Origin: Hormiphora californensis
Lineage: Eukaryota > Animalia > Ctenophora
Reading direction: 5' to 3'
Assembly (NCBI GenBank): GCA_020137815.1
Contig: CM035357.1
Location: forward strand, 3,906,001-3,970,000
DNA: 64,000 bases
Under the pieces are notes generated by a model. It was not told the DNA's origin. It did no database searches and was given only the letters and a program-made list of their open reading frames with translations. A program made the position numbers and the translations under genes. This document shows, in pieces, positions 22,729 to 60,000 of this stretch (within the stretch, counting starts at the first letter, position 1; each line of letters opens with the position of its first letter).

Positions 22729-25700
22729 TGCGTGTGTTAGAACTTGGAGAGATGGCACAACGATACCTAGTAGCTCAGATTAGGGGTGCATTTCCCGCAG
22801 CGTCAAGTATCGACAAAAGGCCACGGGTGTTCCAAACAAATTTCTTTTGTTTTTTGGTCTAGTATATATATATTATATATATACCTCGACCAAAACGCGG
22901 AGTTTTTACGTCAGCCGACCCGAAACCGGATTAAATTTGGCCACCCGCTGGTCTCAGGGCCTCCAAATATGTCAAAATATGTCTGAATTGTCATTTGGGG
23001 TCATTTAGACCTTTTAATTACATGTAATTACCCTTTAATTACATGTAATTACATTTTAATTACATGTAATTACTTCCAATTACATTCCAATTACTTTAGG
23101 ACCTCGAGAGCTTTCGAACGCACCCTAGAACACCTTTCTACTTCTTATAATTGCCGAGTTCTGTATACCCCTTAGTTTGACTGTTTTTCGCGTCCTACCC
23201 CTTATAGGTTTGGGTATGGCCATCGCCACACCCCCTATACGTCGCGGGACCTCGAGACCTTTCCAACGAGCCATAGAACATCTCTCTACTACTTCAGGGG
23301 GCTTCAAAACTTTCACTCTAAAAATATCTATGGTTTATGGTTTATGGTTATGGTTTTACCTCGACCAAAACGCGGAGTTTTTACGTCAGCCGACCCGAAA
23401 CCGGATTAAATTTGGCCACCCGCTGGTCTCAGGGTCTCAGAACATGTCAAAATATGTTTAAATTATCATTCTGGGTCATTTAGACCTTTTAATTACATGT
23501 AATTACCCTTTAATTACATGTAATTACATTTTAATTACATGTAATTACTTCCAATTACATTCCAATTACTTCAGTACCTCGAGAGCTTTCGAACGCACCC
23601 TAGAACACCTTTCTACTCCTTCTAATTGCCGAGTTCAGCATACCCCTTATTTTGACTGTTTTTCGCGTCCTACCCCTTATAGGTTTGGGTGTCATGGCCA
23701 TCGCCACATCCCCTATACGTCGCGGGACCTCGAGACCTTTCCAACGAGCCATAGAACACCTCTCTACTACTTCAGGGGGCTTCAAAACTTTCACTCTAAA
23801 AATATCTATGGTTTTATGGTTTATGGTTACCTCGACCAAAACGCGGAGTTTTTACGTCAGCCGACCCGAAACCGGATTAAATTTTGCCACCCGCTGGTCT
23901 CAGGGCCTCCAAATGTGTCAAAATATGTCTGAATTGTCATTTGGGGTCATTTAGACCTTTTAATTACATGTAATTACCCTTTAATTACATATAATTACAT
24001 TTTAATTACATGTAATTACTTCCAATTACATTCCAATTACTTCAGCACCTCGAGAGCTTTCGAACGCACCCTAGAACATCTTTCTACTCCTTCTAATTGC
24101 CGAGTTCTGTATACCCCTTATTTTGACTGTTTTTCGCGTCCTACCCCTTATAGGTTTGGGTATGGCCATCGCCACACCCCCTATACGTCGCGGGACCTTG
24201 AGACCTTTCCAACGAGCCATAGAACACCTCTCTACTACTTCAGGGGGCTTCAAAACTTTCACTCTAAAAATATCTATGGTTATGGTTTATGGTTTATGGT
24301 TTTATGGTTTTTTTTCATCTGGTATTAAGGGCCTGTCGGCTCGGCCCCGTTGTTTTAGTTTTAGGGGGGATGTTTTAGGGGGGATGGGTTGAGTTTGGGT
24401 TATATTCGGGTCGGGGGGCCTTGCCAGGCCCCGAATGGTTATGGTTTTTTTTTCATCTGGTATTAAGGGCCTGTCGGCTCGGCCCCGTTGTTTTAGTTTT
24501 AGGGGGGATGTTTTAGGGGGGATGGGTTGAGTTTGGGTTATATTCGGGTCGGGGGGCCTTGCCAGGCCCCGAATATATACATAGTAGGATTTTAGGTTAC
24601 TAACACTCCTTCACTAAAATTGACAATTGTGGCACGCGACTTTTGGCACGTCCTGCTGATCTAATATGTATAACCGCTCCTACTATAATATCAACTGGAC
24701 TCTTCAATATGAACAAAAACCCTTGAACTGTTCGTACTGAGCTGTCTCCGCACTCTTTATAAAAACAAGACGAAATTTAAAAAACCTAAAACTTATCTTC
24801 AGTTTCACTAAATATTGGCTCATATTTGAAGATCTCATAATCAAAAGTATAAATACTATTCAGCCTCTCCTGTTGCGCTCTACTCAACTGTTTTAAGTAC
24901 TCCAACACTTCTGAACCCTTTACAGTTGAAACCCCCGAAGGGTTAGCTTTGGTGTCCATTAACCTGTCCGTATACTGAGTCATATTCAGCTTATCCAACA
25001 AGTAGGGAAGTTCATCTTGTTCGTTTTCTAGTTTGGTAATGATATCCAAATCGTTATAACACACATCAGTTCGGGCGGAATTAGGTTTCCAGTGTTCGTT
25101 GGTGCCCCTCCAATCGCTTTGTGCACGTGCATAGAAAATATACTCAATAAACTCGGGAAATGTCGGCAGAGAAAGATAAGGGTTGGTTGTGTTTGGATCT
25201 GGTTTTAGCGCCCCTGTCAGCAGTCTATCTAACTCGCTCCGGTACTTCTTCTCCTGTGCTGCTGTCCACGATGTTTTATTCCTAGCGTGAACCACGGTGG
25301 GTATTATCCATTCGTCTTTTAACTCTGCCTGATCCTTCTCACTCACCATCGTCTTGCGATAGTGGGATACCAACCGAGATAAGGGATGTCTGATAATGGT
25401 AAATCTGATACTATTAGCTGGCTCCACTGCCCACTTTCGCTTTCTCGGACCAGTCTTGTTAGAAGGTTTTAACTCGTTCTTTTCGTATAGTCTGCTAGGA
25501 AATAGTAAACTAAAACTGGCATGGTTCCCCTTGACATTCGCATCCGGGCCACGAATCTCGTCAATGAAGAACATCTTCCAAGTTGTGCTGGAGGATTTAA
25601 AAACGGGCAACCATGTTACTCCAAACTTCTTAAAATAGTACATATTGTAGGATTTGTGGAACTTAGGATTCTCTCTTTCACACACTTCCCTAATGTAGGA

Positions 25701-28700
25701 CATTCGAGCTTGCACCCTAGAATGAACTTCGGGATATCTCTCTTCTGTAATTTCCTCCAGGTTTCTCTCTTCTGTGGGCAAATCCGTCTGATCATCCTCC
25801 CCATCAGATAAGCCCTCTCTGACCTCGCTCTCCTCTTCTCTCAGATCTTTCTCGGCTTGAACAGCTGGTCTTGGTGTTGCTGGATGGCTCGGCCCAAACA
25901 ATTCTTTAATTTCTGATTCTGCCCCAGTACTGTTAATGGAGGTTTGATCACTGTTGGTCTGATCTGAATTCCAGCCGAATACCACAGGCTGCTGACCACT
26001 GTCTAAGAGATTGATGCCATAATGTGTGACTATCAGGACAAGTGCTAAGGCACAACAATAGATGAAGTATCTCGATGGTCTGCTCATGGTCCCCTGCTAC
26101 CTGTCGTAAAAGTGAAGTTATATAATCAATAAACCCAGGTCTATATGGTGCGGACCTCCCACTAGGGAAACAAAATATCACTCTGTACACTCCCAAGGAC
26201 TCCACAAGGGGTACCCTCAATTGGTGACCTACAACTATGGCTCATGCAACTATGGCTCATAAAATCTATGAGCCATAGATGCATGCAACTATGGCTCATA
26301 GATTTTATGAGCCATAGATGCATACAACTATGGCTCATAGAAATGTGATCTGATTAGGTTCTATGAGCCAAAGCTAGTGAGAGTGAGAGGGACGTGAGTG
26401 ACACGTGAGTGACACGTGAGTGACACGTGAGTGACATGTGAGTGACACGTGAGTTTTCGAATCATGTAATATTAAATGAGCACAAATGTAAACGATTTAC
26501 ATAATGATAAATCTAATATTACATAATTAAAATTACACTATCAGTTCATCTTGGATATAATGGTAAAAGGGGTCCTTCTTTGGACAGTTCATAGAGCATT
26601 TCACGTGAATCAGCAGCTCCTTAACACGATGTTTATTCAAATCTAGGATCGGATAGGTACTAAACAGCCGCCTTGCATTATCACTATCAGGATCCACAGT
26701 AAAAAACTCTCCAACAGGTCTGATTTTCGAGAAAGTAGTACAGTCGGACCCCGATTTAGGGACCCCCGATTTAGGGACACCCCGATTTAGGGACAGGATT
26801 TTTTCCCCCAAAAGTTTTTGAATTTTTTTTGGGAAATTTTTTGTGCAATTTTTCAAAAAGATTCCAGCCATGTCCGAATCGTGTTTCGAATCGGTGCATC
26901 CTTCTGCTAATTAGACGGTTCGGAACGAACCGACACGTGATCCCCATGGTGCCCATTGAATCACAAGTTCACCAAGGTCCAAGCGTCAAAATTTCGATTC
27001 GATGGGGATCACGTTTCGATTCGTTCCGTCTAATTAGCAGCAGGACATGCGATAAGATGCACCGATTCGTAACACGATTCGGACGTGGCAGGTATACCTT
27101 TTAAAAATTTTATAACTTTTTTGCAAAATTTTACAGTACGATTTTCAATGCTTTGATCGGTGCTCCCCAAAAATTTTGAGAGAAAAAGTTGTTTTGAAAT
27201 TTTTATACTTTCTCACCCGCTTAGGGTGCCCCGAATCCCGATTCGGTATGGTATCACGTATCGGTTCGTTTTGAACCCGCTAATTAGACAGGATATCCAG
27301 TAAGTTGCACCGATTCGAAATACAAACCGGACGGGCTGGTATAATTTTCCACTTTTTTTTGAAAAATAATTATTTTATATTTTTCTTTTTCTAATCAGAA
27401 ATGATCATATCATCAATACATGAATATTGCATATAACAGTTAGAGGTGTCTTAAGTCTTAATAATATAGCATTTTGGGCAATAAAATAGGTTTTTTGGGT
27501 CAAATATGGCTCACCCCGATTTAGTGGACACCCCGATTTAGTGGACAAGACCCTTTCCCCCGAGGGTGTCCCTAAATCGGGGTCCGACTGTATAGGTAGG
27601 ATGTTCCAATTATAGCTAGTGAATCCACTAACAAATTCTAATGAGCGGGATGGATATTTGACAGTGTCACATATCCACCCCCCTCACTGACACGATTCTG
27701 GGATGCGTCATTAGCAGAGTGAAACGATACGAGATACGAAACTTATGATTCGGGGGAGCTCATTAGCAGTGTGTGACGATAGGTATATGGAACATGATTC
27801 GGGGAAGCTGATTAAGAGTGCTAGACGATATGAGACACGATTCGGAGAATGTTTTATCGCTCTTTCTATCTATCTCTATCTCTATCTATCTCTTTTTGTC
27901 AATTATCTTGGACTTGAGAACCAGATGAGGTGCCTACCATTATACAGTCGGACCCCGATTTAACGGCCCCCGATTTAGCGGCAGCATAATCTTCCCCCGA
28001 TATGGGAAATTAACATTATTTGACCCCGATTTAGCGGACACCCCGATTTAACGGACAAAATCCTTTCCCCCGAGGGTGCCGTTAAATCGGGGTCCGACTG
28101 TACTATAATGCGAGCTGACGCTACACACTTGGTGAGTTTAGTGCCCTTATTTTTGGTAATAAGAGCCTATCGGCTCGCCTCATTGTTTTTAGGAGGATAT
28201 GTTGTTTTAGATGGAAAGCGTTGGGTTTTTTTTCCGAGTCTTGCCAAACAGACCAAATTCAAACCATTCCATCTAAAACAACAACATATCCCCCTAAAAA
28301 CAACGGGGCTGAGCCGACATCCAGATAAAAAAGGAAAAGGAGTATGGACAAAAATAAGGGCACCAAAGTTTGTAGCTTCCTCGCATTAGTATGAGTAGGT
28401 ATCTCATCTGGTTCTCAAGATAATTGACAAAAAGAAATAGAGATAGATAGAAAGAGCGATAAAACATTCTCCGAATCGTGTCTCATATCGTCTAACACGA
28501 TCCTAATAAGCTTCCCCGAATCATGTTCCATATACCGTATCGTCTCACACTGCTAATGAGCTCCCCCGAATCATAAGTTTCGTATCTCGTATCGTTTCAC
28601 TCTGCTAATGGCGCATCCCAGAATCGTATCAGTGAGGGGGGTGGATATGTGACACTGTCACATATCCATCCCGCTCATTAGAATTTGTTAGTGGATTCAC

Positions 28701-31700
28701 TAGCTATAATTGTTATCGACGTCACGAACAACACTAAAACGTTCAACGAGTACCGGGAGGTTTTGGAAGAGTGTGAAAGATCAGAAACTTTAGCCAGGCA
28801 ATTTCTGGGAACATCCTACCTATACTACTTTCTCGAAAATCAGACCTGTTGGAGAGTTTTTTACTGTGGATCCTGATAGTGATAATGCAAGGCGGCTGTT
28901 TATTACCTATCCGATCATAGATTTGAATAAACATCGTGTTAAGGAGCTGCTGATTCACGTGAAATGCTCTATGAACTGTCCAAAGAAGGACCCCTGTTAC
29001 CATAATATCCAAGATGAACTGATAGTGTACTTTTAATTATGTAATATTAGATTTATCATTATGTAAATCGTTTACATTTGTGCTCATTTAATATTACATG
29101 ATTCGAAAACTCACGTGTCACTCACATGTCACTCACGTGTCACTCACGTGTCACTCACGTGTCACTCACTCTCACTAGCTTTGGCTCATAGAACCTAATC
29201 AGATCACATTTCTATGAGCCATAGTTGTATGCATCTATGGCTCATAAAATCTATGAGCCATAGTTGCATGCATCTATGGCTCATAGATTTTATGAGCCAT
29301 AGTTGCATGAGCCATAGTTGTAGGTAATCCCCTCAATTAACGAGTCCTTTGCGTCACGGCCATGCTACCGTGAAGAAAACCGTAAAAATGAGTAAACACA
29401 CACACACGCATTGAGCAAGCTATTCTCCGCTGGGATGAGGTACTGGCTTGCTCAATGCGTGTGTGTGTGCACACATGTTTACTCATTACCTCCCGGTGCT
29501 ACAACCCCTCTACTAAAACCGTAAAAGCTTACACTGGTGTAAACGCTGTGTAAATACTGAACTTTTTTAGGAATTTATTGTCATATGTCTCTGGTGGGAG
29601 AGATGATGGTTGAAATGTGAGGGAAAGATATGACCACGAAGGGAGGCTCTGTCCTAGCATGTGCCACTCATCTTGGATGAATGATGATGGGATAGTAGTA
29701 TGTAGCCCTTATGCTAGTATGCTAGAAACAAAAGTCAGTTCAACAATCAGCAGCCGGCCCCTGCAATATAAATAGCTCTAAGAAGGGAAATATAGAGGGG
29801 TCTATGTATGTTATTGAAATATCCCTATAGCTAGGCCTATAATATAGATAACCCCGGCTAGTGGAGGGATGAAATTTGATATACCAGCCTGTCAGGCTGG
29901 TATTATATCAAATAGATATCCGCGAGGAGTGAAACGACGAGGGGAATATCGTGTGATAATCCCCTTAGGGGATTATCAAATTTCATCACTTTACTAGCCC
30001 CGGAAATTAAGATTCAAGATTCAGATTAAAAAGTACTTAGTATGCTCAAATTAAAAAGTAGGGTAGCGACTGGCTATTTGAAACAGTTTTTCACTTTTTT
30101 CCCTTGCCTGCCCACAAATCAAGTCGAACCCAAATTTTTTTGACCTTGTGTTACCGAGACAGTCCCTGGGTAGTTTTTTGGGTGGTTGGAGATGTCTCAT
30201 TTTGTCTTCCGGGGTCAGGGTCACGTGATATCTATCCAAATTTGGTGTTTCAATTTACCCGCCTCGGTCTGCTAATTTGAAACACCCATATCTCCCTCAA
30301 TTTCTCCACGAAACCAAAATTTTTGACATTGAATAGTTAGAAAAGGGTTGTGCAGAGCCATTCCATGTCTGAAATCTGAATTTTGTTGAACATGCTTGGT
30401 GCAATGACCTTTTCCAAAAACTGTTTCAAATTAGCAGGAAAACAGTTTTTGCCTCATATTCGGCCAACTTTTGGCGGAAATGACTCAAATCATAGTTTAT
30501 ATCCTGCCTCATGCTCATATTGAACAACAAAAATTTCGACAATCCAATCGGAGAAAATTGTTTCAAATAGCCCTCCTCAGTGTTTCAAGTTACCAGACTC
30601 TCTTCACTGTGCTACAGCACACACACGACACCAGTCAGAGAGCAAATAACGCGCATTTGTTTCAAATAACCAGAGCACGTGTTTCAAGTTATCAGACACT
30701 GTTTCAAGTTAGCAGGCGTTTCAAATTGCCAGTCGCTACCCTACTTAGTATGCTCGCGGTAATCCATCTAGACTCAAGCTATTCTTGAATAAAGTACCGT
30801 GAGTTGGTAGACGTACTAGAAATTTTGCCAAATTATTAGCCGAGAATGGATATGATAAATTCTTGACCGACAAGTGACATTTTTTTCAATTAGTGAATAT
30901 GATCATAAGTCGTAATTTCCCAGGCTATATACCTAACCGACAGACAGTTTTTTTTGACACATTTTATCTCTTGATTTTAAATTATCTAATAATTTTATAG
31001 CTTGATTTTAAATTACTAAGCTAAATTTGAGGTAAAATTCATTTAGTGGGGCGGCATAATTATGTTATAGCATGACCATAATATATTACTCAACATTGTC
31101 AGTTCTCGCCCCTACCCCATTACAACATCAGAATCTCTCACCCCATCCTATTTACTCATCTACCTGTCCCCTTCCTATTTATATCACCTGCACCATGCCC
31201 TGTTTTGATCAGGATCTCCCAGCTCCTATTTTAAATACTCACCCTACCTACCAAGTGTTCCCCCTAGGTTGTGGCTGTTCCACTATTGGTTCCCTGTCCA
31301 ACAGCTGTGAGAGCGTGGGGGGACAGTGTCCCTGCAGGGATGGGTATACAGGGAGGAGGTGCGAGCTGTGCATTCCAGGGTACTTCGGTGGAAAGAATGG
31401 ATTTTGTGAAGGTATTTTTCGATTTTCTTCCCTGTTCAATTCTTTCTCAGATCTCATTGAGAATGATGGCATAAACTACCATACATAAATGTGTGTGACA
31501 TGTTTTAGCTCTAAAAATACCCACAGAATATCTGACTGTAACTATGGTAACCCTTCCCTACTCCCCTCAGCGTGTCAATGTAACGGGTACGGTAGCTACT
31601 CCCAAGTGTGTGACACACTCACTGGGCAGTGCCCCTGTAAACCCGGCCTAGTTACCTCTACTGAACAGCCCGGACTTCTTGATTGCTCACAGTGCATTGA

Positions 31701-36056: not shown

Positions 36057-39000
36057 TTACTAACAGTCCAGCTCTCAAGTTGTAGATCATCGACGATCCG
36101 GAGAGTTTGACTGTTTTTAGTAAAGGAGAGTGCTGTTCTAGTACAAAATCTATCTATCTCCCTCTTTCCCTCTCGCTCTCACTTGCTCTCCCTCGCTCCC
36201 ACCCTTCCTCTCTGGTTTGGTTTAGTAAAGGAGAGTGCTCTCCCTCCCTCCCTCCCTTCCTCTCTGATTTGGTTTAGTAAAAGAGAGTGCTCTCCCTCGC
36301 TCCCTCCCTTCCTCTCTGGTGTGGTTTGGTAAAATAGAGTGCTCTCCCTCGCTCCCTCCCTTCCTCTCTGGTGTGGTTTGGTAAAATAGAGTGCTCTCCC
36401 TCGCTCCCTCCCTTCCTCTCTGGTGTGGTTTGGTAAAAGAGATTGCTCTCCCTCGCTCCCTCCCTTCCTCTCTGGTTTGGTTCGGTAGTACAATAGTATG
36501 TTGGTATGGTATGTACCTACATATTGTACAATTTAGTCGGATCCCAATTTACCAGAACCCCAATTTACCGGGAGGATAAACTACCCCAATATTTACCTGG
36601 CTAGACTGTGTTTCGGGCGCCCCGCCCCCGATTCACAAATGTAAAGGGAGGGTTAGAACATAGAAACCCAATATAATAAGAAGCTGTGACGAGAAGCTGT
36701 GTCCCCTTCTCTCTTTCTCCCCCTTTTTATTGGGAGATGGGAGCCAACGGGTGCACTACTTCAACGGGCTATCTAAGTCGGATAGTTTCTTGTAGAACAA
36801 CCCATGCACTCGTAGAGGAATAACATTTTATACCCGGGCCCCATATATACCATGTTTGAGCGGTGAGCCATTGGTGGCCCCAGCCTGGGATGGTGGTGGC
36901 CAGTGGCTGTAAAACGTGTTTAGAATCGAGATTTTGGTCGTTTTCGCTGAGGCTAAGTGCAGTAGTACAATATTGGTAATTGGACTAATCATTTTCTATT
37001 GGGGGGGGGGGGCGTCACCTTTTTTTTTTGCCCATTGCCCATAATCCCAGCGAATTTTGGTTTTGCCCATATGGGCAAAATGGGCAAAAATGGGCAAAAG
37101 TGGGCAAAAATGGGCAAAATGAAATTATCAGTGTTATATGTCCTTTTTTAAACTCTATACCTTGATGTCATCTCTTAAAAACTCGGTCAGAATGGTCTTT
37201 GGTGTTAGTCGCCACTGCGACAGAGCGCCGCGCACACGAGTAGTGTGTGCACGCCGCGCGATTTATTTCTCAGTTTGGATTTGTGAAATATGTTTTCCAA
37301 TAATGTTTTGTGATAATCACTTCTTCCCGACACCAACAAGATTTGTTTCTCTTCTCTGTTTCCGGACCTTTAACAGTGGTAGCAGGAAGTGGTTCCGATC
37401 CACCGACCTCTGGGTTATGGGCCCAGCACGCTTCCACTGCGCTTCAAACTTTCATCAACTACAACGTAAAACTATTTATTGAGCGTGGGAAAATAATGTT
37501 AGCAGAAAGATAGAACTATGAATAATGATAGCAGACAGGAGATGATGGGTGGATCGGAGCATAAGGATGAGGTGGAGGAGGATAGTTTCGCCTTGAAACA
37601 AATGCAGAAATATGGTTGGAGTGAAGGAAAGGGACTTGGTGCGAAAGAGGGAGGCATAACAGCACCTGTTAAACCGTGTTTAAAGTGTGATAAACACGGT
37701 CTGGGTCACGATATCACCAAAGATATTGGGTTTAACTGGTGGGACAATGTATTCAACAAGGCCCTGAATACTGTGGGGAAGAATGAAGAAGAGCAAAAGA
37801 AAATCAAAGAAAAGGAGAAAAGGGAACAAAGGCTTATAAAAATTTTGTTCAGAAGGGTGAGATAGAGTCGGAAGAAGAGTGTGCTGGAACTAACGGAACA
37901 GACACGTTATCGGTTGCCATGGTGACAGAATGTGAAGGTAGAACAGCACACAAGGGTGCTCGACACGGTGTATACAGTTCAGGGAAACTGGAACGAGTCA
38001 AAAAGGCCGAGGCGGAGTTTCTTGAGAGACGTTCACGTGACAGGGAATCACGGGAAAGTGTGAAAGAGATTACCCGACGGAAACAGAAAGTTAGGACTAA
38101 AAAACATCGGTCTAGAGTTCCATCAGAGTCTAAATAGATAACGAGCGGTGATTATCAGGGAGAAAGAGAGAGAGAAAGAACGATCAACGTATATGTAGAG
38201 AGGAGAAAGAGCTCTCTGATGTGAAAAGGGAGAATTTAAACTCCTGGGGCTCTTCGACGAAACTTTAAACACACTTAATAAATAAGCTCTCTTTAGAGTT
38301 ACACAAGGAAAATTTTTCAGACTTGTCTCGAGAGGGGTGTCGTCGAACGCTTTCCAAAACCACACTTTAGGACCTTGGTGTGAACCACGTGTATACCACG
38401 TGAATCCCCGGATCACCCCTCGTGTATGGGTGTAGAAAACCAATCAGGGGATCGAAAATGGACACGTGATAGGATTTCCATTACATGGGTTTACACAGGC
38501 GTCAATTTGGTCACGTGTAGGGTTCACCAGCCAATAGTGTTAGCGAGATATCACACCAGATTGGGCGTGAAGAAGAAGTTTGACTTCCATTTCTCAAGAT
38601 TCAAGAAATTTCAAATCTTCAAAACTCTGTGTACTCTTACAGTAGCTGGCAATGAATGTTATAGCGGACAAATAGAGATCTAACATTGATTGTTCATTAT
38701 GAAAAATCAATAAACCTATACACTAATAACTTGCAATATTATTTAGGCCGGGTGAGATGAATATATATGCTGCTAGATGAAGAGATAAACAGTGAAAGTA
38801 TAGTAGTAGTTCACTGTTCATCTTGTCCTGCCAGAAGAAAAACAACTGAATTCATCCACATCTTATCTGACTGTGAGAGTCTAATACAGATGGTGTATGC
38901 AGTATGGGCTTGGCTGAAACCCCAAACTAGTGCCTCAATATTGTGGTTGAGTAGAGATAGCTAACTGGGGGACAAGGAGTGCCATTTTATCTTTTTTCTA

Positions 39001-42000
39001 CATGCGAGAAGCAAAATATACACTGTTTTGTTGCATCTTTTACTTGCCAGCGCTGTCTTGTCTACCATTAAGTCTCCTCTGGAGGAGACTTAACAAATCT
39101 CACTTTTCTCGATATTTGAGTGAGATATTGCGTGAACTATGACGTCATTGTCGCTTCAATTTGGCCCAAATCACGTGATTTTACCATGTGATTAGGGGGT
39201 TACGCATGGTTTGGAGAGCTTGTGTAAAACTTCACTTACTACCCCTCAATTTTCACTAAGCAAGATTTCTAAAAAGTTTCGTCGACACAAACCATGCTTA
39301 AGGGGTGTGAAAATCAATTAGAAGGTGTGAAAGGAGAGTTACGCAACGTTTTTAAGTGTGCTTAAAGTTTCGTCGAAGAGCCCCTGGGGCTCTTCGACGA
39401 AACTTTAAGCACACTTAAAAACGTTGCGTAACTCTCCTTTCACACCTTCTGATTGATTTTCACACCCCTTAAGGGTACGCTAACCAAAATTTTTTTTCGA
39501 GTGCAGGGAAATCTCTCACCGTAGGGTTGTAGGCCATGCCAAGGAGACCTCAAATATGCAATTTGAGCTCTCAAGTCGAATTCATATTTTTGCTACAGCT
39601 GCTTGAAAAATGAACTGAAAATAAGTTTTTGGCATCTCAAAAAATTTTTTCAAAGATAGGAGCATGAAAATTTGGGGATTTGAAGAGGACAATGAAGGTG
39701 AATAACCACAAAATTTTTTTTGCAATCCGAGCTGATTTCCGGTCCTGAGATGGATTTCTTTTTTTCCACTTTAACGCCATATTTGGCAAAGTTCCGAAAA
39801 CATGTGAAAGCTGTAAATTGGTGAAAAGTTGCGTCTAACGATTATCTATAGTGGCCATAAATTTTGGGCGTGTCCTTATTTGAGATAAGCTGTACAGAAT
39901 TTTTTTTGTGAAAGCCGTCATTTCAGAAATAAATAAATTCCCTGTATCTCAAAAACGGCTGATCGTAGAGACCTGAGACTATGCTTAAACGATTCAGAAG
40001 GTCCGATTTTGGGGGGGTCTTCTGAGAGACATTTTGCTCCTACTTCAACCGTTTTTGCTGTAATTGCGAAAAACAAATTCTATGAAAAGGGCAAAAGCTA
40101 AACTCCAATATCCTGTAATTAGGGAATTTTAGCTAAGAAAGGACCGAAACTATGGAAAAATGTTTAACAAGCTAATTCCTTCACTATTTGGTCCATATGG
40201 GTCCCTATAATCATCAAAAACAAAATCACAAAAAATCCACGATGGCGAAGATGGGTTATTGTTTTTCGCAATTACAGCAAAAACGGTTGAAGTAGGAGCA
40301 AAATGTCTCTCAGAAGACCCCCCCAAAATCGGACCTTCTGAATCGTTTAAGCATAGTCTCAGGTCTCTACGATCAGCCGTTTTTGAGATACAGGGAATTT
40401 ATTTATTTCTGAAATGACGGCTTTCACAAAAAAAATTATGTACAGCTTATCTCAAATAAGGACACACCCAAAATTTATGGCCACTTAGATAATCGTTAGA
40501 CGCAACTTTTCACCAATTTACAGCTTTCACATGTTTTCGGAACTTTGCCAAATAGGGCGTTAAAGTGGAAAAAAAGAAATCCATCTCAGGACCGGAAATC
40601 AGCTCGGATTGCAAAAAAAATTTTTGTGGTTATTCACCTTCATGTCCTCTTCAAATCCCCAAATTTTCATGCTCCTATCTTTGAAAAAAAATTTTTGAGA
40701 TGCCAAAAACGTATTTTCAGGACATTTTTTAAACAGCTGTAGCAAAAATATGAATTCGACTTAAGGGCTAAAATTGCATATTTGAGGTCTCCTTGGTATA
40801 TGGCCTACAACCCTACGGTGAGAGATTTCCCTGCACTCGAAAAAAATTTTTGGTTAGCGTACCCTTAAGCATGGTTTGTGTCGACGAAACTTTTTAGAAA
40901 TCTTGCTTAGTGAAAATTGAGGGGTAGTAAGTGAAGTTTTACACAAGCTCTCCAAACCTTGCGTAACCCCCTAATTACGTGGTAAAATCACGTGATTTGG
41001 GCCAAATTGAAGCGACAATGACGTCATAGTTCACGCAATATCTCACCCAAGTATCGAGAAAAGTGAGGTTTGTTAAGTCTCCTCCAGAGCAGACTTAATG
41101 GTAGTTAAGACAGCGCTGGCAAGTAAAAGATGCTACAAAACAGTGTATATTTTGCTTTTCGCATGTAGAAAGAAGATAAAATGGCACTCCTTGTCCCCCA
41201 GTTAGCTATCTCTACTCAGCCACAATATTGAGACACTAGTTTGGGGTTTCAGCCAAGCCCATACACCATCAGTATTACTCTCACAGATGTGGATGAATTC
41301 AGTTGTTTTCCTTCTGGCATGACAAGATGAATAGTGAACTACTACTATACTTTCACTGTTTATCTCTTCATCTAGCAGCCTATCTATTCATCTCACCCGG
41401 CCTAAATAATATTGCAAGTTATTAGTGTATAGGTTTATTGATTTTTCATAATGAACAATCAATGTTAGATCTCTATTTGTCCGCTATAACATTCATTGCC
41501 AGCTACTGTAAGAGTACACAGAGTTTTGAAGATTTGAAATTTCTTGAATCTTGAGAAATGGAAGTCAAACTTCTTCTTCACCCCCAATCTGGTGTGATAT
41601 CTCGCTAACACTATTGGCTGGTGAACCCTACACGTGACCAAATTGACGCCTGTGTAAACCCATGTAATGGAAATCCTATCACGTGTCCAGTTTCGATCCC
41701 CTGATTGGTTTTCTACACACATACACGAGGGGTGATCCGGGGCTTCACGTGGTATACACGTGGTTCACACCAAGGACCTAAAGTGAGGTTTTGGAAAGCG
41801 TTCGACGACACCCCTCTCGAGACAAGTCTGAAAAATTTTCCTTGTGTAACTCTAAAGAGAGCTTATTTATTAAGTGTGCTTAAAGTTTCGTCGAAGAGCC
41901 CCAGTTCTGATAAAGGTGTCAAAGAGAGTTATGATAAATGTTTTCGAGAGGAGAAAGAGTTCTCTTGTGATGTGAAAAGGGAGAGTTTAAACTTTAAACT

Positions 42001-45000
42001 CCTGTTGTGTTAAAAATGTTAAAGATAATTGTGTTAAATATTTTCGAGAGGAGAAAGAGCTCTCTGATGTGAGAAGGGAGAATTTAAACTCCTGTTCTGA
42101 TAAAGGTGTCAAAGAGAGTTATGATAAATGTTTTCGAGAGGAGAAAGAGTTCTCTTGTGATGTGAAAAGGGAGAGTTTAAACTCCTGTTGTGTTAAAAAT
42201 ATTAAAGATAATTGTGTTAAATATTTTCAAGAGGAGAAAGAGCTCTCTGGTGATGTGAAGAGGGAGAATTCAAGGTGCAATGAAGATGATCTTGAGAGTG
42301 TGTTAAATTTTCTCAAGAGGAGGTGCGTGGGAGATGTATACGAGAGTAGTTTTAATTTGACCCACACACACATGACGTACAACCACAAGGACATACACAA
42401 CAGACACACTGACGAGTTCCTGTCTGGTGATGAGATGACACAGCAAGAGAGGATGTTTTGTTATACTCCGGATAGGCGGAGGAGGAATTGTAATACTCTG
42501 GCTGAGCAGATTGAACACGTCCAGTTTGAACATCAGTCCTTCCTTGGATCTGAAAACTGGCAGTCAGAGAGTGATATGAATAGTTTCTATGCTGAACCAG
42601 ATATGGGTGATGAGTTGTTACCTGATCCAGCTCCATTTGATGCTGCTGTCACTGCACCAGCATCCCGGGTTGGTACCGTGGCCTCATTGGATGAGGATGA
42701 TAAGTATGTTTCTAAATTTCTTTCAGCTGTTTCTTTTCTGGTGAAGATTAAAAGGAAAATTAAAAGATGGAGAAAGAGGAGCCAGTGACTACTACTGACA
42801 CCTTACTATTTTGTTTTAGTTATTGTTTCTTTCTACTATTAATTATCGTGGTATATGATAGTTTTTGACAGACGATAACAACTCGTTTTTCGTATCAATA
42901 GTTTTCAATTATATATGTTAAATTTACTCTGTCATTTATTTTAGACTGATGACAGTGTATCTGATTCTGGGATGTTTATTTCTTTTCCCTTTCTCCAGTT
43001 CGCGTGTTTATGTCGAGGTCCGCATCCTTCAGCGTTCCCGGCGTATAGCGCGCGAGTTCTGGAAAAGGAAAAGGCCCTGAGTGTTAGTCGCCACTGCGAC
43101 AGATGCAGAGCGCCGCGCACACGAGTAGTGTGTGCGCGCCACGCAATTTATTTCTCAGTTTTGATTTGTGAAATATGTTTTCCAATAATGTTTTGTGATA
43201 ATCACTTCTTCCCGACACCAACAAGATTTGTTTCTCTTCTCTGTTTCCGGACCTTTAACATTTGGTGTCTAATTAGTAGTCAAATTGTTTTTAGTGGTCA
43301 AATCCTTAATTTAGGATTTTTTAGGTTTTTTAGGTTTTTTTTTGGCTTTAATGTGTTTTAGAAACGTCCTAGAACAAAATTAATACAAGCATCTTCTTTA
43401 GCGTGAAATTCTGCTCCGATTATAGTGGCTATAAACCTATCTATGATGTAAGGTGCAGGAGTTTTTTTTGCCCATTTTTGCCCATTTTGCCCAAAGTCCC
43501 ACGATTTTTGAAAATTCACTTTTGCCCATATGGGCAAATATGGGCAAATATGGGCAAAATAAAAGGTGACGCCCCCCCCCCCTTTCTATTATATCCGTTA
43601 ATTTTACAGTTCATTGGCCTCTACAAAAAGTTGTTCTAAATTGCTCAAAGATCATCAAAATCTAATGTATGAAACATGTTAGAAACATGTTATAATATTG
43701 TTATCCCCATTCAGGTCTGGAACGTGTACCTGTCTCCAAGGTGTAGCTGGGCCTCAGTGCAAGGAGTGTAACCCAGGTAAGAAACATCCCCCAAGCTTGG
43801 GTAGTCTCGATGAATATAACTTACCAAGGTTATGCATCGATACTACCTAAATTAACTAGCTAAATGAAACACATGTAGTCATGATACTACAGCTGTCAGA
43901 GCATTGGCCTGTGATCCCTGATTCTCGTTTCTTTGAGTGCAAGAATCGTGGTCAGACACTTGACTTACTTACTTGACAGTGATACTTACTTGACAGTGAT
44001 ACTACTAATACCCTCCCCCGGCGAATAGAAGCTGGTGTAACATGTCTCATTTTGGTAGTTGGGTGGTTCCCTTCGTGGGGTGACTCTGCTTTCCAACTAC
44101 CACAATAAATTACCTGCTCATTCTTCACTATTTGTAACATGTCTCAACTATATTTTGCAGGTTTCTACAACCTAGTCCCTGGGTTCGGGTGCTCTGAATG
44201 CGGGTGTAAGAGTGAGGGAAGTGCCTCCATCGCGTGTGATGGTAGGGGTGCATGTGAGTGCAAAGAGAACGTGGTTGGGAGCAAGTGCAATACTTGTGCT
44301 ATGGGATCATTTGGACTAACTGAGGAAAATCCTTCTGGTAAGATCTAGAATTCAAGCCATCTATATCGAAAATATTGTGTCCCTTACTGTCACAACTGAT
44401 TGAGAGATCACCGAAATGATTTCATTAAGATCATGAATATACATCCAGCTTAAAACCCTAATCCCCCTCCTCCAGGATGTGTGTCGTGTTTCTGTAGTGG
44501 GGTAACGGATCAGTGTGAAAAAGGGTCCGGATGGGCTATCAGAGAGAACAACATCAGGAGGAGATGGAGAGTTAATGACGGGGTTGAAGAACAAAGGTCA
44601 GTAGCCCAGGGAGACTTGGTTACGAAATAACCCCTCTCGCGCTGGCAAGGGAGGGGTTATTTTGTAACCAACAGGGAGACTGGACAGTTTCAAATTTCCC
44701 ACGGTCCTTTGTAAATCGCGCGCCCAAGACGTCAATGATTGAGGTTCATTAGCTTTCCGTCGCGGCGCGTTACGTCATTCACAGTTACACCAACGAACCG
44801 ATTATGAACCCCGTCACATGAAAGACTTTCATCGGCCCATTGCGGCTACGTGGGTGGAACTTTTGACAGATTTTTAGTATCATGAACATCACATGAACCA
44901 TAGTATTGACTCACTGACTCACTGACTTGTTTCCTGGGAAATATCACGACACCCCCTAACCACTACCCCCCTCTCATTAGGAATATCCACCCCTAACCAC

Positions 45001-51000: not shown

Positions 51001-54000
51001 GTGGAAATATAACAATAAATCACAAATCAAACAAAATTGACAATATCCATACCTGATCCTGAAGTTGAGCTAGAAGTCCTTCGTCTGCTGCTGTAATCAA
51101 CGGTTCTTCTTCTCGTAGTTGTTGTAGTCCTACGTCGTGAAGCGGCACACAAACATACGAGTAGGATAAGGAGAAGACACAGGGTCCGTTTCATGTTTAC
51201 TAGTTATAGATTGAGTGTTTATTATTACACTTTCCTTTTGAGTTATTTAATACTATAAAATGTAAAAGATACAAAAAGCTTACTGTACTAATATACTAAC
51301 TATAAGTAAGTAACTTCGGCAGGAAACAGTACAATGAAAATCTATAGCTAATACAGCTGTAGCCTGCAGTACATCTAACAGTAATTATAGAGGGAGGCAC
51401 TCAACAAAGATACCACTACTGCAACAAAACGCAAAGGGAGAGAGAGAGCGGGCATAACATTAACATGTATAATAGCACAATAGAAAGAGAAAACTCTAAA
51501 CAGAGAGAGGGGGACTGGGGAGGAGTTCGAGAAACTAAGTGAAAGAGATCACAATAGGAAAAGTTTGAAACTTTTCAACACTACTTTAAACAAATTAATT
51601 TGAGCTGATGATGACGTTAAACGTCGAAACCGTCCCGTATTATCTTTCCTGAAATAAATCTCCGAGTCGTCTACAGTCCTAAATAAACACTATATCATTG
51701 TATAGCAGATATAGAGTTCCTCTTCACACGCAAAACAACACGCAGCTTTCAACACTACTCCATAACGCGATCACGTACACTAGAATTCCTTCACGTGCGG
51801 TCACTGCCATCCAACTAATGCTAAACACTCGACTCTCAATACACACGAGTGAGCTGCTTATACAATCCTTATAATGAGTAGAAATGGCCAACAGTTCTAT
51901 TGGACACTAGTTCTATTTATCGTACCATTCTTTCCCCTCACTTCAATAGCACAAGACATAGCAAGGAAAGGGTGGGTAGTATCCACTGGACACCGCTACG
52001 AACCGGACTAAAGAGTTACACATGAATTCCTTTCACCTCCTCGTGATGAAATCTCCCTCTTGTGGGTAGTGTACGGGAAAGGAGAGGTAGCCCGTTGCCA
52101 ACAGTTACACAAACAATACAATTATACAATGGAAAGAACGTGGACAACTATTTATCCATATACCATTCTTATTATAAGTATAACCAGAAAACCCGTTTAT
52201 TTACAGCGCCCGTTCTCTCAAATGCCCACTCCCCTAGCCCAAGAGCACTGTCCTTCCGCTGTACTTATCTGCACGTGCAGTATAAACCAACCCGCCCCTA
52301 ACAACCTCTTCAATTTGCACGTGCACAAACGGTTGCTAGCGACATTTCCAAATTATAATAGAGACTAGAAAGCCCGTTGAAGTAGAGCACCCGTTGACCC
52401 GAATCCCCACGCTCTCCCTCACCCACAATCACCCCTCTCACCCGCTGCACCAACCCGCACGTGCAGCATTCAATCACCCGCTGCGTAGGGGATATGGCAC
52501 CTCCTTGGCAACCCCCCTCTATTTGCACGTGTGGATAGGTCATCATCCTCACCACGCCACTCATTTGCATGATTTGTCATTGGATTTGCATGAAATCTTG
52601 GATTTTGGTCGAAAATTGTCCCATAAACAACTTTAGCATGGCCCTGATTGGCCATTTCAATCAGAATTATGTCAAAAGTTAAAAAATCGCAAAAAACGAG
52701 AAAATCAAGTTATCCTTTTTTCAGTAAGCACATCTCAATAGTTTGCCAAAATCTAACCATAAATCGGATATACATGAAATTTTGGGATCCCGTAGAAAAA
52801 TGACCATTTTAACGATTGGCGCTATTGCCAACTTCCTATCTCAACGTTTTCAATGGTTAAAGGGCCAAAAACCTCAAAAAAAATGACAAAATTCCCATAT
52901 TTGACCATTTTTCGGTCATTTTAGAGATTTCTCTCCAGCGGCAATCAATTTGTCAATCAGATATTTCATCAAACGGCAGTCAAGTAAGTTATGCACAAAT
53001 TTGGACCAAAAACCAGTTTTTTCAATTTTAACAAAAATTTCACCCGATAACATATACTTTTCTCACCGTGGGGATGTTCAGGAAGGCCTCCTGGGTCACC
53101 CCCAACAAAAGTTTGTTTTGCGGGCTCAACTTTGGGTTGACGATCCTTCTGGTGCACCGTGTATATTTACCCGATATGTAACCCTATTATAACCCTATAA
53201 TATATCTTTTTCTCAATGTGACCCCATCTTTTTCTCGATACTTTCTGGAAACGTGACCCATGATCCCTCTCTCTCCAGGTGGCAACTACCCAATCTGTGA
53301 CTCATGTGAGGAGGGGTACACGGGTGCCAACTGTATGGATTGCTCCCCCGGGTACTGGGGTAAGGATGGACAGTGTACTGCATGTACCTGCTCAGACAAC
53401 ATCGACCTCTCCGACCCGTACAGCTGCAACAAACAGGATGGTGTCTGCCAGAATTGTATGTACAATACAGCAGGGAGACAATGTGAGAGATGCAAGGAGG
53501 GTTACTATGGTAACGCACTCCAATCAGATCTCCCCAAGTGTAGGGAGTGCGGGTGTGATGAGGCTGGGAGTGTGAGGAGTATCTGCGATGACGTCACTGG
53601 TTTCTGTGAGTGCCTCCCTCACGTCAGTGGGAGCAAGTGTGATAAGTGTGTGGCTGGATATTGGAATCTCACCTCCGGAGGGGAGGGATGTGTGGGGTGT
53701 GAGTGTGATATGAGGGGAGCAGCGGGGACAGAGTGTGATATGATCACTGGTCAGTGTGATTGTAAGGCTGGTATATTCGGGTTGAGGTGTGATGAGTGCA
53801 AGCCTGGTTTCTATCACACCAACTCACCCAACTCCTTGGAGTTGGAGTGCCAGGATTGTAGGTGTAACCCCTCTGGGTCCACCTCTCTCCAATGTGATAG
53901 TGACGGACAGTGCCCGTGTAACCCCGGTGTAACCGGTATGCAGTGCGACACCTGTTCTAGAGGTACCACCGGTACCTTCCCGGAGTGTGAACCTTGTGGT

Positions 54001-57000
54001 GAGTGCTACACAGTATGGGAGGCGGAGGTGAATCAACTCGAAGAGGAGGTGTTGGCCCTCGCTGCTGAGGCCCAGAACATCCACCTTGGGGCTGCCAATA
54101 TGACGGAAGCCGAGTTACAGGACTTGTTTAGAGAGCTGAGGAAGAAGTTGCGGGAGGCAGCTGATCTGGCAGGCCAGGCGCCTGATGCTACGGGATCGGA
54201 ACGGGAGAGAATATCACAGGTGTTAGCTGATCTTGGAAGGGAGGTTGAGGCGCGGGAGGAGCAGTTGGAAGAGTTGAGACAGAGGTTAGATGGGGTGGAT
54301 AGAAAGAAAATAAAGACTGACAGGAAACTAAAGGCTCTGGAGGACAAATTGGTGAGGTTTGAGGAGGGTACGGCTGATCTCGCTGAAAAAGCTAAAGCTC
54401 TCTCAGCAGCTAACTTGGATGAAGCCTTGAAGTTGGTCGAGGAGGCGGCTGAGGAGAGTGCCAAAGCGCAGGCTAGGGCCCAGGGAACTGAAGATACGGT
54501 TGCTGATGCAGAGGGTAAGGCTGCACGTGCAGAACGCATTTTAGAGGATGAAATCTTCTCCGACACATCTACCATGGACCAACTCCAAGGTCTAGAGGGC
54601 GACATCTCCGATCTAACCCGGAAACTAGATCAACTGGATAGCCGGGTTTGTGGTGCTGAGGAGGGTACTGGTGATGAGTGTGGACCGTGCGGGGGTAGCC
54701 GGTGTGATTCCTGTGGGGGAGTGGGTTGTGGGGGAGCTGTGGCACTAATATCCGAGATTGGGGAGCTGGGGGAGGAGGCTAAGAGGTGCACAGTGAGGAG
54801 AGAGGATGAGGCAAGCGAGGCTACCTCCAAACTGAGGGAAATGAATAGCCAGGCAGGGGAGATTGAGGGGAAAATCAGTGATCTTGCAGAGGTAAATATA
54901 TAATGAGAGTTTGTTTGTTTGTTTGTTTGTTTGTTTGTTTGTTTGTTTCGTTGCTTGAAAGTTATAGTCTCAATAACAGTTGGACATGTTTGAGACATTT
55001 ATCAAAGTGATCTTTCCCTTTCTTTCCCTTCGATGGTTCTACAGAAGATCTATCTGGAACTGGCATAGGGTAAAGACTTCGAAAGAAAGCTCGACAAACG
55101 CTCATGTCTCTCTTGTCTCTATAAATATAGCACAGAGACACGTGAGAATTTGTCGGTCTTTCTTGACAGATCTTTAATTCCCAAACTTAAGTTTGGGAAT
55201 TAAAGATCTGTCAAGAAAGACCGACAAATTCTCACGTGTCTCTGTGCTATATTTATAGAGACAAGAGAGACATGAGCGTTAAATTCAAAGATATTTTCTA
55301 GGGAACTAATTAGTTCCCTAGAAAATATCTTTGAATTTAAACTCATTTCCCATCTTTCTCTCCCAGCTAAGCAAGGAAACAAAGGCAGCGCTGGATAAAA
55401 AAGAGGGTGATATTAACGCTTTGAAGGATGGGCTAACTGCTGTTGTTGAGGGTGATAGGACATCCACTGATGAGATCGAGAAGATTGTGGAGAAGATAGA
55501 AGCCCTGTCATTGCCACTGTCTCAGTCTGCACTAAACAATCTAGTTGAGGATCTTATAGAGGCGCTGGATGATACACAATTCTTGGATACAGGTAAGTTG
55601 AAATTTAATGGAGCCGTAATACTATCTACCGGGAGGGGGGAGTTAAGAAGGTTGTGGTACTGATCACAGGACCTTGCTCTCAACTAACCCTACAACTAAC
55701 CCTACAGACGCGGCAGTATCGGATGAGGATAAGGCAAGGTTAGCGGACCTGCTTGGGCGTGCCCGGGAAGCCAGTGCCTCAGCCAACCAAACTCTTGATG
55801 ACGTGTCTGGAGCTAATGCGGATCTAGCAGCCTTTGACCGGACACACGAAGAAACAAAGGAGCTGCTGACTGAGACTACTGAGGTTGTTAATGACGGCTG
55901 GAGGGACGTCAACAAGGTACGAGTTTTTGATCTGTAATAAGAGCGGTTACCATGGGCGCGAACCCCTGTTATTGTTAGGGACCCTACGCAGTGGGGCCAA
56001 TCACTTAGTGATACCAGCACCTCTAGACAAGGTGCTTTTAGTATAGAAAACCAGAAAATGGTAGTTTAGTTTAGAGCTTTGATGTTACATCACTTTATTA
56101 CTACTTTTAACATCGCTGCTCCAGGGCACGCCCCATTTAGACCTTTAAAAAAAAGTTCATTTTGTGAATATTATACAAATGACAGCTATCATGATATGAC
56201 TGTCTCGCTCATTCGACAGAATTCCCCTTCATATTCTGAGCTGCCCTATGATATTCTGAGCTGCCATTTCGTTAATTATATGCAGGGTTGCGACAGAATA
56301 ATATATTGGTGTAGATAGAGATACCCATGGACACGGCACTGTTGAAGTTAAGCAGGGTTATCTTTATTGTGCCCAACAGAGAGCGCTTCTGGCCACCCAC
56401 TGGGTTTGTGGTAGCCTAGGCTATCATGAACAGGACTTGTATTAATCGAAACCTGCTTGTTGCCACCAAAACATCTACCTGGATTGAAAATGAAACATTA
56501 GAATCAAGATGGGATGTTGTGGTATATTTAAGGGTACGCTAACCAAAAATTTTTTTCGAGTGCAGGGAAATCTCTCACCGCAGGGTTGTAGGCCATGCCA
56601 AGGAGACCTCAAATATGCAATTTTAACCCTCAAGTCGAATTCATATTTTTGCTACAGCCGTTTTAAAATCGTCTTGAAAATTTCCGAAAAGACGTTTTTG
56701 ACACCCTAAAAATACATTTTCAGGGCTAGAAGCTTAAAATTATGGGGATTTGAAGGGGATAGAAAGGTTTATCGACACAAAAATTTTTATTAAAATCGGT
56801 GATGATTTTCGGTCGTGAGATTGATTTACTTTTTCCCTCTTAAAGGCCCTATTTAGCAAAGTTCCGAAAGTTTGTGAAGGCTGTAAATTGGTGAAAAGTT
56901 GCGTCTAACGATTATCTAAGTGGCCACAAATTTTTGGCGTGTCCTTATTTGAGACAAGTTGTACAGAGCTTTTTTTGTGAAAGCCGTTTTTTTAGAAATA

Positions 57001-60000
57001 ATGAAATAGCCTGTATCTCAAAAACGACTGATTTTAGAGACCTAGGACCAAGCTTAAACGATTCAGAAGGTCCGATTTTGGGGGGTCTTCTGAGAGATAT
57101 TTTTCTCCTACTTCAACGGTTTTCGCTGTAATTGCGAAAAACAAATCCTTTGAAGAGGGCAAAAGAGGAGTTCCGACAGCCTGCTTCGTGCTGCTTTTCC
57201 ACCTTCTTGCTAAATCCTTTTTCGCAATTACAGCAAAAACCGTTGAAGTAGGAGAAAAATGTCTCTCAGAAGACCCCCCCAAAATCGGACCTTCTGAATC
57301 GTTTAAGCTTGGTCTCAGGTCTCTAAAATCAGTCGTTTTTGAGATACAGGCTATTTCATTATTTCTAAAAAAACGGCTTTTACAAAAAAAGCTCTGTACA
57401 ACTTGTCTCAAATAAGGACACGCCAAAAATTTGTGGCCACTTAGATAATCGTTAGACGCAACTTTTCACCAATTTACAGCCTTCACAAACTTTCGGAACT
57501 TTGCTAAATAGGGCCTTTAAGAGGGAAAAAAGTAAATCAATCTCACGACCGAAAATCATCACCGATTTTAATAAAAATTTTTGTGTCGATAAACCTTTCT
57601 ATCCCCTTCAAATCCCCATAATTTTAAGCTTCTAGCCCTGAAAATGTATTTTTAGGGTGTCAAAAACGTCTTTTCAGAAATTTTCAAGACGATTTTAAAA
57701 CGGCTGTAGCAAAAATATGAATTCGACTTGAGGGTTAAAATTGCATATTTGAGGTCTCCTTGGCATGGCCTACAACCCTGCGGTGAGAGATTTCCCTGCA
57801 CTCGAAAAAAATTTTTGGTTAGCGTACCCTTAAAGTGCGTAAGACCCTAATCGTGGGAAACTTCCCGGACCCTGATAGTACTAATCATGGGAAAGATAAT
57901 ACAGTCGGAAACCGGTTTACTGGGATGCTCGAGGAAAGGGTTCTGTCCGGTAAATTGGGGTGCCCGGTATATATATATAACCGAGGTAAATCATTATTAA
58001 TTTCCTATGGGTATAATAGCAGGGCTGGGCTGGGCTGGGCTGGGCTGGGCTGGGCTGGGCTGGGCTGGGCTGGGCTGGGCTGGGCTGGGCTGGGCTGTGT
58101 CAAGATAATAATAACCATACTCAAATACTCAATATTCGTCATACATATATACTGAGATGTTGGTGCAATAAGAATTTTGAGTAGACCATGCCTCGTGATA
58201 CATACTGTTCTGTAAAGGTATAAATGAATAGGAACTCGACAGAGTAGGAACCTGATCTTAGTTTTGTCCTGCATGAGATTAAACATGTGATGAAATGAAT
58301 TCGCATGTCAGTTGTAATAAAGATTGATTTAGTTTTTATTCTAACGTTCCAAAATCACAACTAAAGCCTTTCAACAGCACACGATGAACGATACAAGTGA
58401 AATATACCTGACTACATCCCAAACTATACCCCTTGCAATATATTGCTTCTTTGTCACCTTCTTCGGTCTCACTGGTAATGGACTGGTCCTATACTCCTCT
58501 CTACGCTATGATGCCATCAAACTTGACCAAGTCTCCCTAGAGTTCGTTAGAAACCTAGCTCTGGCGGACATTCTCTATACCATCTGCATTGTCCTACCCC
58601 AGTTTGTAACCTTCGCTGCTCGTCGCTGGGTCTTGGGACCGGTTAACTGTGTGTTGCAGGGTGAGATTGTAATGGTACCTAGTTCTCTCAACACCCTCAC
58701 CGTCTTTGCGATATCATGTTACCGACTCAAACTGGTCATCTCGCCCTTCCACCAGATCTCACTGCGATCAGCCCGGATCTTGATTGGTTTTATTTGGCTA
58801 CTGGCACTAACCCCACTTGTCGTGATAGAGTCCTACCAACTAGGGACACACTTCGACCCGAACATTGCGAGGTGTGTCGGGGACATTTACGACCATGACG
58901 AGGCCAGGGGACCTCTGATGATCTTGGTAGGGATCATCGTCTTTATACCTTTGTTTGGAATTGTCGGTATCAATTTTGGCCTATTGGGGGTCGCTCTCCG
59001 TCTCCAAAGCTCCAGAAACAGCGGTCCAAGTCGTGGAATTAACTTTAAAGGTCCTCTGGACATCCTGGCTCTGTCTGGTCTGCTCATGTTCAGCTGGGGT
59101 CCCTACCTCGTCTACACTTTCATCAAGATCAAAACACCCGAGGTCTCTCAACAGTTCACCCTAGTGGTTTTCAATTTCCTTCTCCTCAACGTCTTTGGTA
59201 ATCCCTTTCTCTACACGATTACCAATAGAAGATTCGGCCGATATGTCCGCAGTTTGCTCTGTGGCTTGCTAGGAAAAAGGCAGACTATTATAGGGAGTCA
59301 GGCTACCACTAGCGGGACAAATGGAAACGAAATCACCAGGGAACGGAACCACCAGGGAACAATCACTGACGCCTGACTGTAACTAAGCCCTGCTAATTAG
59401 AACATTTTTTCCTGTAAAAGGTTTTAGGATGGAGTCAGCAGAGATACTGATATAGCTGCCTAGTGTCTGATTCTTTGATTAATCACTTGAACTTGTCCCC
59501 GAATTGGCGATGAGTAACAGTAATTCAGACTTTTTGAGATAGCAAGAATATTTTTCGGAGAAATGAACCATAATGCTCCATAAACAAGAAAGCACTGAAT
59601 CACTTATTTAGTTACAATCATGTTGGCCGCCCAGGAAGCAGTGCACGACCTTCAAGACGGGCGAAAAAATCAAAAAATGTTATTGTTAGCGGACTGCGTC
59701 TTGGAAGTAGTGGACCGTGCAGTTATAGTGGGCAACGGTTTATATGTGGGCGGCCAATATGACGAAGAATATGATTTGATGAGTAAACACACACACGTGC
59801 ACACACATTGATCAAGCTCAATTTTTGCTAGCGAAAAAGTAGAAAATTGCTGAAAATTATTTGCGAGAAAAGCTCTGGACAAGCAAAACTATTATGTAAT
59901 TTGTTTTTCGGACAACCCGGTCAAAATACATGACCTAGGACCGATCTCCACAATACAGCCGGACTCCGATTTACCGGGATCCTCGGGGCGGGAAAGGGTT

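Follow-up and report, generated by a model that had tools for sequence, protein, structure and literature searches.

How does a retrotransposon come to carry the complement of almost an entire transfer RNA beside its long terminal repeat (LTR)? The question is raised by a locus of the ctenophore Hormiphora californensis, in a 64,000-nt stretch of DNA which was analyzed as a whole and is here called the window. Next to the 5' LTR of an element in this window, the usual primer-binding site (PBS) is prolonged into a far longer complement of the initiator tRNA-Met (tRNA-iMet). The original prediction proposed that reverse transcriptase (RT) had copied the primer tRNA beyond its normal stop, misreading one methylated base and halting at another.

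The element that contains the tRNA complement

The tRNA complement lies in a complete non-autonomous LTR element, together with a copy of the host gene GPATCH4. The parts of the element that frame them are as follows.

37198–37202, + strand: left copy of the target-site duplication TTTGG, 5 bp
37203–37375, + strand: 5' LTR, 173 bp, TG...CA
38198–42273, + strand: tandem repeat array with a unit of about 93 nt, split by a later insertion
38244–41904, no strand: nested foldback insertion with long inverted arms, presumably later than the element
41991–42788, + strand: open frame of 265 codons in the older internal region, holding a piece of a host gene with a UBA domain
43061–43074, + strand: polypurine tract (PPT), which ends 7 nt before the 3' LTR
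43082–43260, + strand: 3' LTR, 179 bp
43261–43265, + strand: right copy of the target-site duplication TTTGG, 5 bp

This is the structure of an LTR retrotransposon, with direct LTRs that begin with TG and end with CA, a duplication in the range of 4–6 bp, and the PBS and PPT at the expected places. The two LTRs differ by 4 substitutions (of 173 sites) and one 6-nt indel. The four differences are clustered within 26 nt, and they may represent recombination between variants, not age.

Four of 22 runs (X1, X5, X10, and X11) were examined; the share is below 0.2 in 16 of the 22, and X10 and X11 are among these. In X1 and X5, empty-site contigs connect the left and the right flank with a single TTTGG between them, which indicates that the LTR element entered as a single insertion unit, with the reservation that the flank itself is repeated and these contigs may be paralogues.

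The element lacks the coding capacity that makes an LTR retrotransposon autonomous. None of the Pfam families of gag, protease, RT, and integrase was found in any of the three ORFs of at least 120 aa that begin inside it (the scan took in 16 of the 36 window ORFs of this size). The element ORF has one full-length relative, P0005 (73%), in which none of these families was found either. P0005 has 110 residues before the aligned part, and there is room here for only about 44 codons of repeat. No relative of P0005 was seen in viral_contigs and no usable match in the Atlas. Neither viral_contigs nor genome_contigs yielded an exact match to the LTR start. Inside the older ORF, at about 42540–42668, is a piece of a UBA-domain host protein, which we take to be p47/NSFL1C-like; its parent appears as loose-ended contigs in X1 and X5. 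Further host-like pieces are seen near 42788–42821 and 42854–42896.

The foldback insertion is 3.7 kb long and is placed within the internal repeat array. Its ends are CTG/GGG...CCC/CAG and are reminiscent of Harbinger-type elements. It has 1-kb inverted arms with inner palindromes, and related arms are present at 56527–57840.

Extent and end point of the tRNA complement

The complement itself is divided as follows.

37377–37394, + strand: canonical 18-nt PBS, complementary to tRNA-iMet 76–59 including CCA, 1 nt after the LTR
37395–37442, + strand: 48-nt extension of the PBS, complementary to tRNA-iMet 58 to 10, which stops one base short of G9
37395, + strand: tRNA position 58 as G (C on the + strand), a putative misincorporation at m1A58

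As had been predicted, a complement of about 66 nt starts 1 nt after the 5' LTR. One G separates it from the LTR end (37375), and its 66 nt (37377–37442) cover the tRNA from the CCA end at position 76 to position 10, without position 17. The match was expected to end at 9/10, and its last base is exactly position 10; A and A follow at 9 and 8.

The 35-nt stretch of positions 23–57 was used as the query for comparator genes, so that agreement in this part is by construction. It has 71 exact matches in 69 metagenome loci, whose genes are not known to be those of the host. All 71 of these metagenomic iMet matches, which may therefore come from other organisms, have A58, and the claim that the window departs from the ordinary T-loop with G at this position is borne out against them. 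The clean set of comparators consists of 68 genes of 72 nt, after L043, L055, and L061 were dropped as rearranged or cut. Positions 8–15 are invariant in this set; U8, G9, and G10-C11-G12-C13 are each found in 68 of 68, and the window agrees with them from 10 on. CCA after position 73 is seen in only one of the 68 genes, while the window has CCA.

The acceptor 3' strand in the window (66–72; 37381–37387) has a form that is present in none of the 68 comparators, with 66 and 67 swapped relative to the commonest form (57 of 68). If this acceptor form is that of the host, the animal has an unusual initiator acceptor stem. If mutations have since altered these two positions, G58 would be one among three changes, and much weaker as a scar. 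By chance, the sole change in the extension would fall on 58 about 1 time in 48, and the end would fall on 10 about 1 time in 57. The two together are unlikely to be accidental, provided that 66 and 67 reflect the host gene.

The Rfam tRNA model gives the 66-nt complement 28.6 bits (E 0.0024), just below the gathering score of 29. The acceptor 5' strand is unpaired in this match, and the acceptor stem has 2 of 7 pairs. No tRNA gene was called by ARAGORN over the whole window. A functional tRNA gene is rejected based on the absence of an ARAGORN call, the 2 of 7 acceptor pairs, and the aberrant positions 8, 9, and 58. The cloverleaf, the A and B boxes, and the duplication or tail of its own by which a functional tRNA gene or a tRNA-derived SINE is recognized are not combined here.

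Sequences beyond the junction

Two further features follow the tRNA complement directly.

37443–37483, + strand: spliced-leader-like stretch, 41 nt, which ends with TTGAG and begins 4 nt into the published ctenophore leader
37484–38197, + strand: GPATCH4 copy with 5' UTR, whole CDS, and partial 3' UTR, no poly(A); the right boundary is approximate

The letters past the 5' joint do not continue the tRNA; the joint leads from tRNA to leader. The orientations are opposed: the tRNA is antisense, and GPATCH4 and the leader-like stretch are sense. The original prediction described the tRNA half of the junction accurately and missed the leader-like stretch and the GPATCH4 mRNA copy, the half that explains how the read-through could come about and persist.

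The major leader of H. californensis is 44 nt long, ends with TGAG, and is found on 56% of full-length reads, with a class defined by >90% identity (PMC8527503). The 41-nt stretch shares 33 of 43 columns (77%) with the published leader, a score which none of 20,000 shuffles reaches, and it falls short of the >90% identity to the major leader. With 41 nt, the end TTGAG, and the place ahead of the GPATCH4 5' UTR, it has the length (35–48 nt), the TGAG end, and the position at an mRNA 5' end of ctenophore leaders, where the test of the end motif was designed after the match had been seen. When the published leader is compared with the window, the 41-nt stretch is the best site after a near-exact copy (37 versus 33 for the next). 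With the stretch as the query, its best non-self match in the whole window is this leader copy at 51561 (33 versus 26), and 20 of 10,000 dinucleotide shuffles reach its score against the copy. The two leader regions aligned poorly with each other in a multiple alignment, which was left out of the results.

The near-exact copy (42 of 44) occupies 51561–51604 and is followed by CT, not by a GT donor. It may be a leader gene, a pseudogene, or another retroposed leader. A partial leader-like piece is seen near 51746. Ctenophores reportedly have several diverse leaders, as Derelle et al. are said to have described in 2010. The 41-nt stretch is probably a spliced leader, and it would at best represent a second leader class or a diverged leader.

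The closest named relative of the GPATCH4 copy is from another ctenophore, Bolinopsis microptera. The start codon is at 37518 or at 37542/37545, the stop codon is at 38135–38137, and the CDS is in two frames with one frameshift between 37778 and 37835. The CDS is contiguous in the window, and P0004 departs from the GPATCH4 alignment just past NFVQ, a point beyond which the window continues, as if an intron had been lost in the copy. A G-patch domain native to the element was considered and rejected because motifs outside the G-patch also match GPATCH4. A host mRNA is enclosed by both LTRs of one insertion, which characterizes LTR-mediated retrocopies. The GPATCH4 part appears nearly identical to the host gene (X5 contains 0.48 of its words and no LTR). 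As the 3' internal region is matched in organism B at about 90–94%, the 5' module looks recent.

tRNA modifications at positions 58 and 9

m1G9 blocks pairing. Eight modifications are listed for human iMet, namely m1G9, m2G10, m2G26, t6A37, m7G46, D47, m5C48, and m1A58. Methylation of G9 is nearly complete, and RT-based methods are blind to m2G (PMC7293042). The two breaks, at 58 and 9, coincide with the two sites where human iMet bears a methyl group on its pairing face.

Plus-strand strong-stop DNA terminates at m1A58, which prevents pairing, and plus strands that extend far past 58 are held to be unusable for transfer or integration (PMC8599865, PMC13191261). A special rescue is needed for this reason. 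Where an A follows m1A, few C reads result (PMC4787781, section 27), so that G or T is the expected misread at 58. A second stop, m5Um54, is known from HIV-1, but iMet, with A54, does not offer it. The RT of a group II intron mostly reads through position-9 methylations (PMC11770116), and the stop at 9 thus depends on the enzyme. PMC7986045, PMC4824033, and PMC3747384 served as background only. No tRNA modification data for ctenophores were returned by the literature searches.

By analogy with the human tRNA, G58 is likely a modification scar. The proposed sequence of plus-strand read-through, misreading of 58, and stop at 9 is the best account of the tRNA half, and it is a putative one in which the modifications of the host iMet are taken from human.

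A proposed single faulty round of reverse transcription

It is moderately probable that a single faulty round of reverse transcription joined two run-off ends, the copy of the tRNA and the copy of a leader-headed GPATCH4 mRNA. The minus strand would have started on element RNA, switched near 38198 to a co-packaged, trans-spliced GPATCH4 mRNA, and run to within about 4 nt of the 5' end of this mRNA, so that no PBS was copied. The plus strand from the PPT would have extended through the LTR and 18 nt into the primer, and would have found no complementary PBS for the transfer. RT would then have continued, misincorporated at m1A58, traversed the remainder of iMet, and halted at m1G9. The end of the plus strand would have jumped to the end of the minus strand with little or no homology, and both strands would have been completed. 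Integrase supplied in trans would have inserted the joined product. Since then the extension would have been inherited as plain internal sequence, and the foldback element, the frameshift, and small deletions would have hit the window copy later.

The opposed orientations fit this sequence of events because the tRNA part is a plus-strand product and the mRNA part is a minus-strand product. The contrasting orientations, the positions at which the two copies end, and the missing 5' internal sequence of the family would all follow from this single event. It can be speculated, with considerable doubt, that the rescue is a recurring one: whenever the minus strand runs off at an mRNA 5' end, primer read-through to m1G9 might yield a full-length retrocopy, and the 66-nt complement might make the daughters tolerate renewed read-through and keep them mobile.

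Other copies and the origin of G58

The runs were compared over the 3' LTR region, not over the tRNA stretch. Among the X1 contigs listed, one crosses the LTR end. It has 46 loose letters, of which 30 were compared and 29 are identical to 37374–37402, including G58. The compared letters reach tRNA position 51, and the contig ends at tRNA position 35. The X1 element differs from that of the window in 5 of 275 and in 5 of about 560 letters, in addition to indels, and is thus about 1–2% diverged. An assembly error at 58 is rejected because this diverged copy also has G58 and the extension.

The sharing of G58 means that it is older than the split of the window and X1 copies, and an element copy with the extension may have spread. 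The alternative of a single-copy fossil, which had been considered, is accordingly too narrow. Among the X1 contigs listed, a set beyond which there are 33 further pieces and in which part of the LTR depth has no continuation, none joins an LTR end to the flank of the window, and the X1 copy may be an allele or another insertion. X1 was taken to be DNA as a guess, and depth was not used as copy number, since the repeat-to-gene depth ratio and the falling LTR depth also fit RNA. In X5, only 6 of 30 bins have depth and none of these is over the LTR, a gap in coverage that proves nothing. Two LTR variants are present in X1 at 43090–43172 (1 and 5 differences). The 3' internal region and the LTR start recur at about 90–94% in organism B (X10) and in the RNA run X11, which indicates that the element family is older than the window copy.

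A58 is a part of the Pol III B box, and a working gene should keep it. This bears on an unlikely variant of the proposed event, in which the same read-through and joining took place but G58 was already encoded by a variant iMet gene or a pseudogene of the genome, or arose by ordinary mutation in the ancestor that the window and X1 copies share. The acceptor strand, which is unlike those of all 68 comparators, would agree with such an origin, and the difference of the LTRs at 4 of 173 sites means that some change has accumulated. The end of the X1 contig at position 35 would not be predicted from a simple merge with A58 genes, and a second G58-bearing sequence could explain the break. A G58 gene that is identical through the acceptor strand, however, would be expected to break the contig about 9 nt earlier, given overlaps of k=31. 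The uniform A58 of the 71 matches, the constraint by the B box, and the location of the only change in the 48-nt extension on the very site that was predicted (about 1 in 48 by chance) further argue against this variant.

It is improbable that the 66-nt complement is a working trait of the family, either to bind the whole unfolded iMet for priming or as a very long version of the primer over-extension sequence, of which lentiviruses keep a short one. In its favor, the extension is present in the one listed X1 contig across the LTR end (1 of 1), in a copy about 1–2% diverged, and no listed X1 contig joins an LTR end to the window flank. However, the same G58 in both copies points to one inherited event, and the 5' module looks recent compared with the 3' internal region and its counterpart in organism B. 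The X1 contig set is also visibly incomplete, and the type of X1 is a guess.

Two improbable routes that would separate the tRNA from the mRNA

The joining of the two ends in one round can also be replaced by two steps, which is quite improbable. Here an earlier element would have captured GPATCH4, its transcript would have been trans-spliced with the loss of R-U5-PBS, and tRNA read-through would have rescued the next round. At least 56% of H. californensis transcripts bear a leader, and the junction would look identical. This route needs one event more, plus an RNA from which a PBS was still available in the same particle, and no intermediate copy was seen. A separate tRNA retropseudogene of the LINE type (tailless or twin-primed) beside the LTR, or a tRNA that served as a passenger template of the minus strand, is highly improbable: antisense tRNA pieces are known from human tRNA/LINE-1 chimeras, which are mostly tRNA halves (bioRxiv 10.1101/2025.02.02.635956), but here the CCA end is exactly at the PBS position with no other PBS, the sequence shows neither a duplication nor a poly(A) that belongs to the tRNA piece, and a minus-strand switch onto the tRNA would yield the sense orientation.

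Comparison with known systems

The element resembles LTR-mediated retrocopies (Tan et al. 2016, PMC5131818), in which a host mRNA lies between LTRs and replaces the internal region. Pieces of more than one host gene are found in them too, and they can be mobile again as non-autonomous elements. Both of their switch points join mRNA to element over a short sequence common to the two, and as a rule only part of the mRNA is present. In the window element, by contrast, the 5' joint connects the cDNA of the primer tRNA to the likely 5' end of the mRNA, and there is no 5' internal sequence of its own. The word PBS is absent from the main text of PMC5131818.

Over-extended plus-strand strong-stop DNA of HIV-1 and other lentiviruses is similar in that RT is able to get past m1A58 and to copy the primer further. 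Its usable products stop at 58, 55, or 54 (PMC8599865, PMC13191261), whereas the product in the window reaches position 10 and is integrated in the germ line.

Likewise, tRNA/LINE-1 chimeras and tailless tRNA retropseudogenes have tRNA cDNA fixed in the genome, often antisense to the partner. They differ in the LINE machinery and in being mostly tRNA halves, and they lack LTR/PBS geometry.

Some aberrant retroviral products also contain copies of the primer tRNA beyond the PBS. Inserts of tRNA or cellular sequence beside the LTR in circular or unintegrated retroviral DNA were reportedly found by Colicelli and Goff in 1986 and by Dunn, Olsen, and Swanstrom in 1992. Unlike the window element, these DNAs are dead-end laboratory intermediates, which are not known to be inherited or to be joined to a full mRNA copy. 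Ty1 and Ty3 have extended contacts with the primer, and copia and Ty5 are primed by half tRNAs. They resemble the window element in the use of an iMet primer with more than the plain PBS contact, but they have short separate boxes or a tRNA fragment instead of a continuous 66-nt complement. A search of the literature by titles and the starts of abstracts, with older subscription papers mostly outside its coverage, returned no description of an inherited whole-tRNA PBS.

In the retroviral view, a plus strand leads nowhere once it has copied a long part of the primer. The present insertion suggests that such a strand can be completed and inherited if the partner strand has no PBS. It would be a route to full-length retrocopies which needs template homology at one joint only. 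Up to four steps of RNA processing would, moreover, be recorded in DNA at the junction: CCA addition, m1A58, m1G9, and trans-splicing of the leader. If the recurring route is true, genomes hold junctions of the order LTR, tRNA (76 to 10), and mRNA 5' end, which can be searched for and would record tRNA methylation sites. The pattern is simple enough for screening in any genome.

Surroundings of the element

The flanks at 37002–37119 and 43466–43582 are alike as inverted repeats, and the element appears to be inside a MITE-like repeat. The whole window contains 352 pairs of inverted repeats of at least 40 nt, several of them hundreds of bases long. Host ORFs are present at 24786–26096, 31060–31488, 53257–54903, and 58345–59376; they correspond to a sulfotransferase, two sets of laminin EGF repeats, and a rhodopsin-type receptor. 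The element lies between the two laminin-like ORFs and is possibly intronic.
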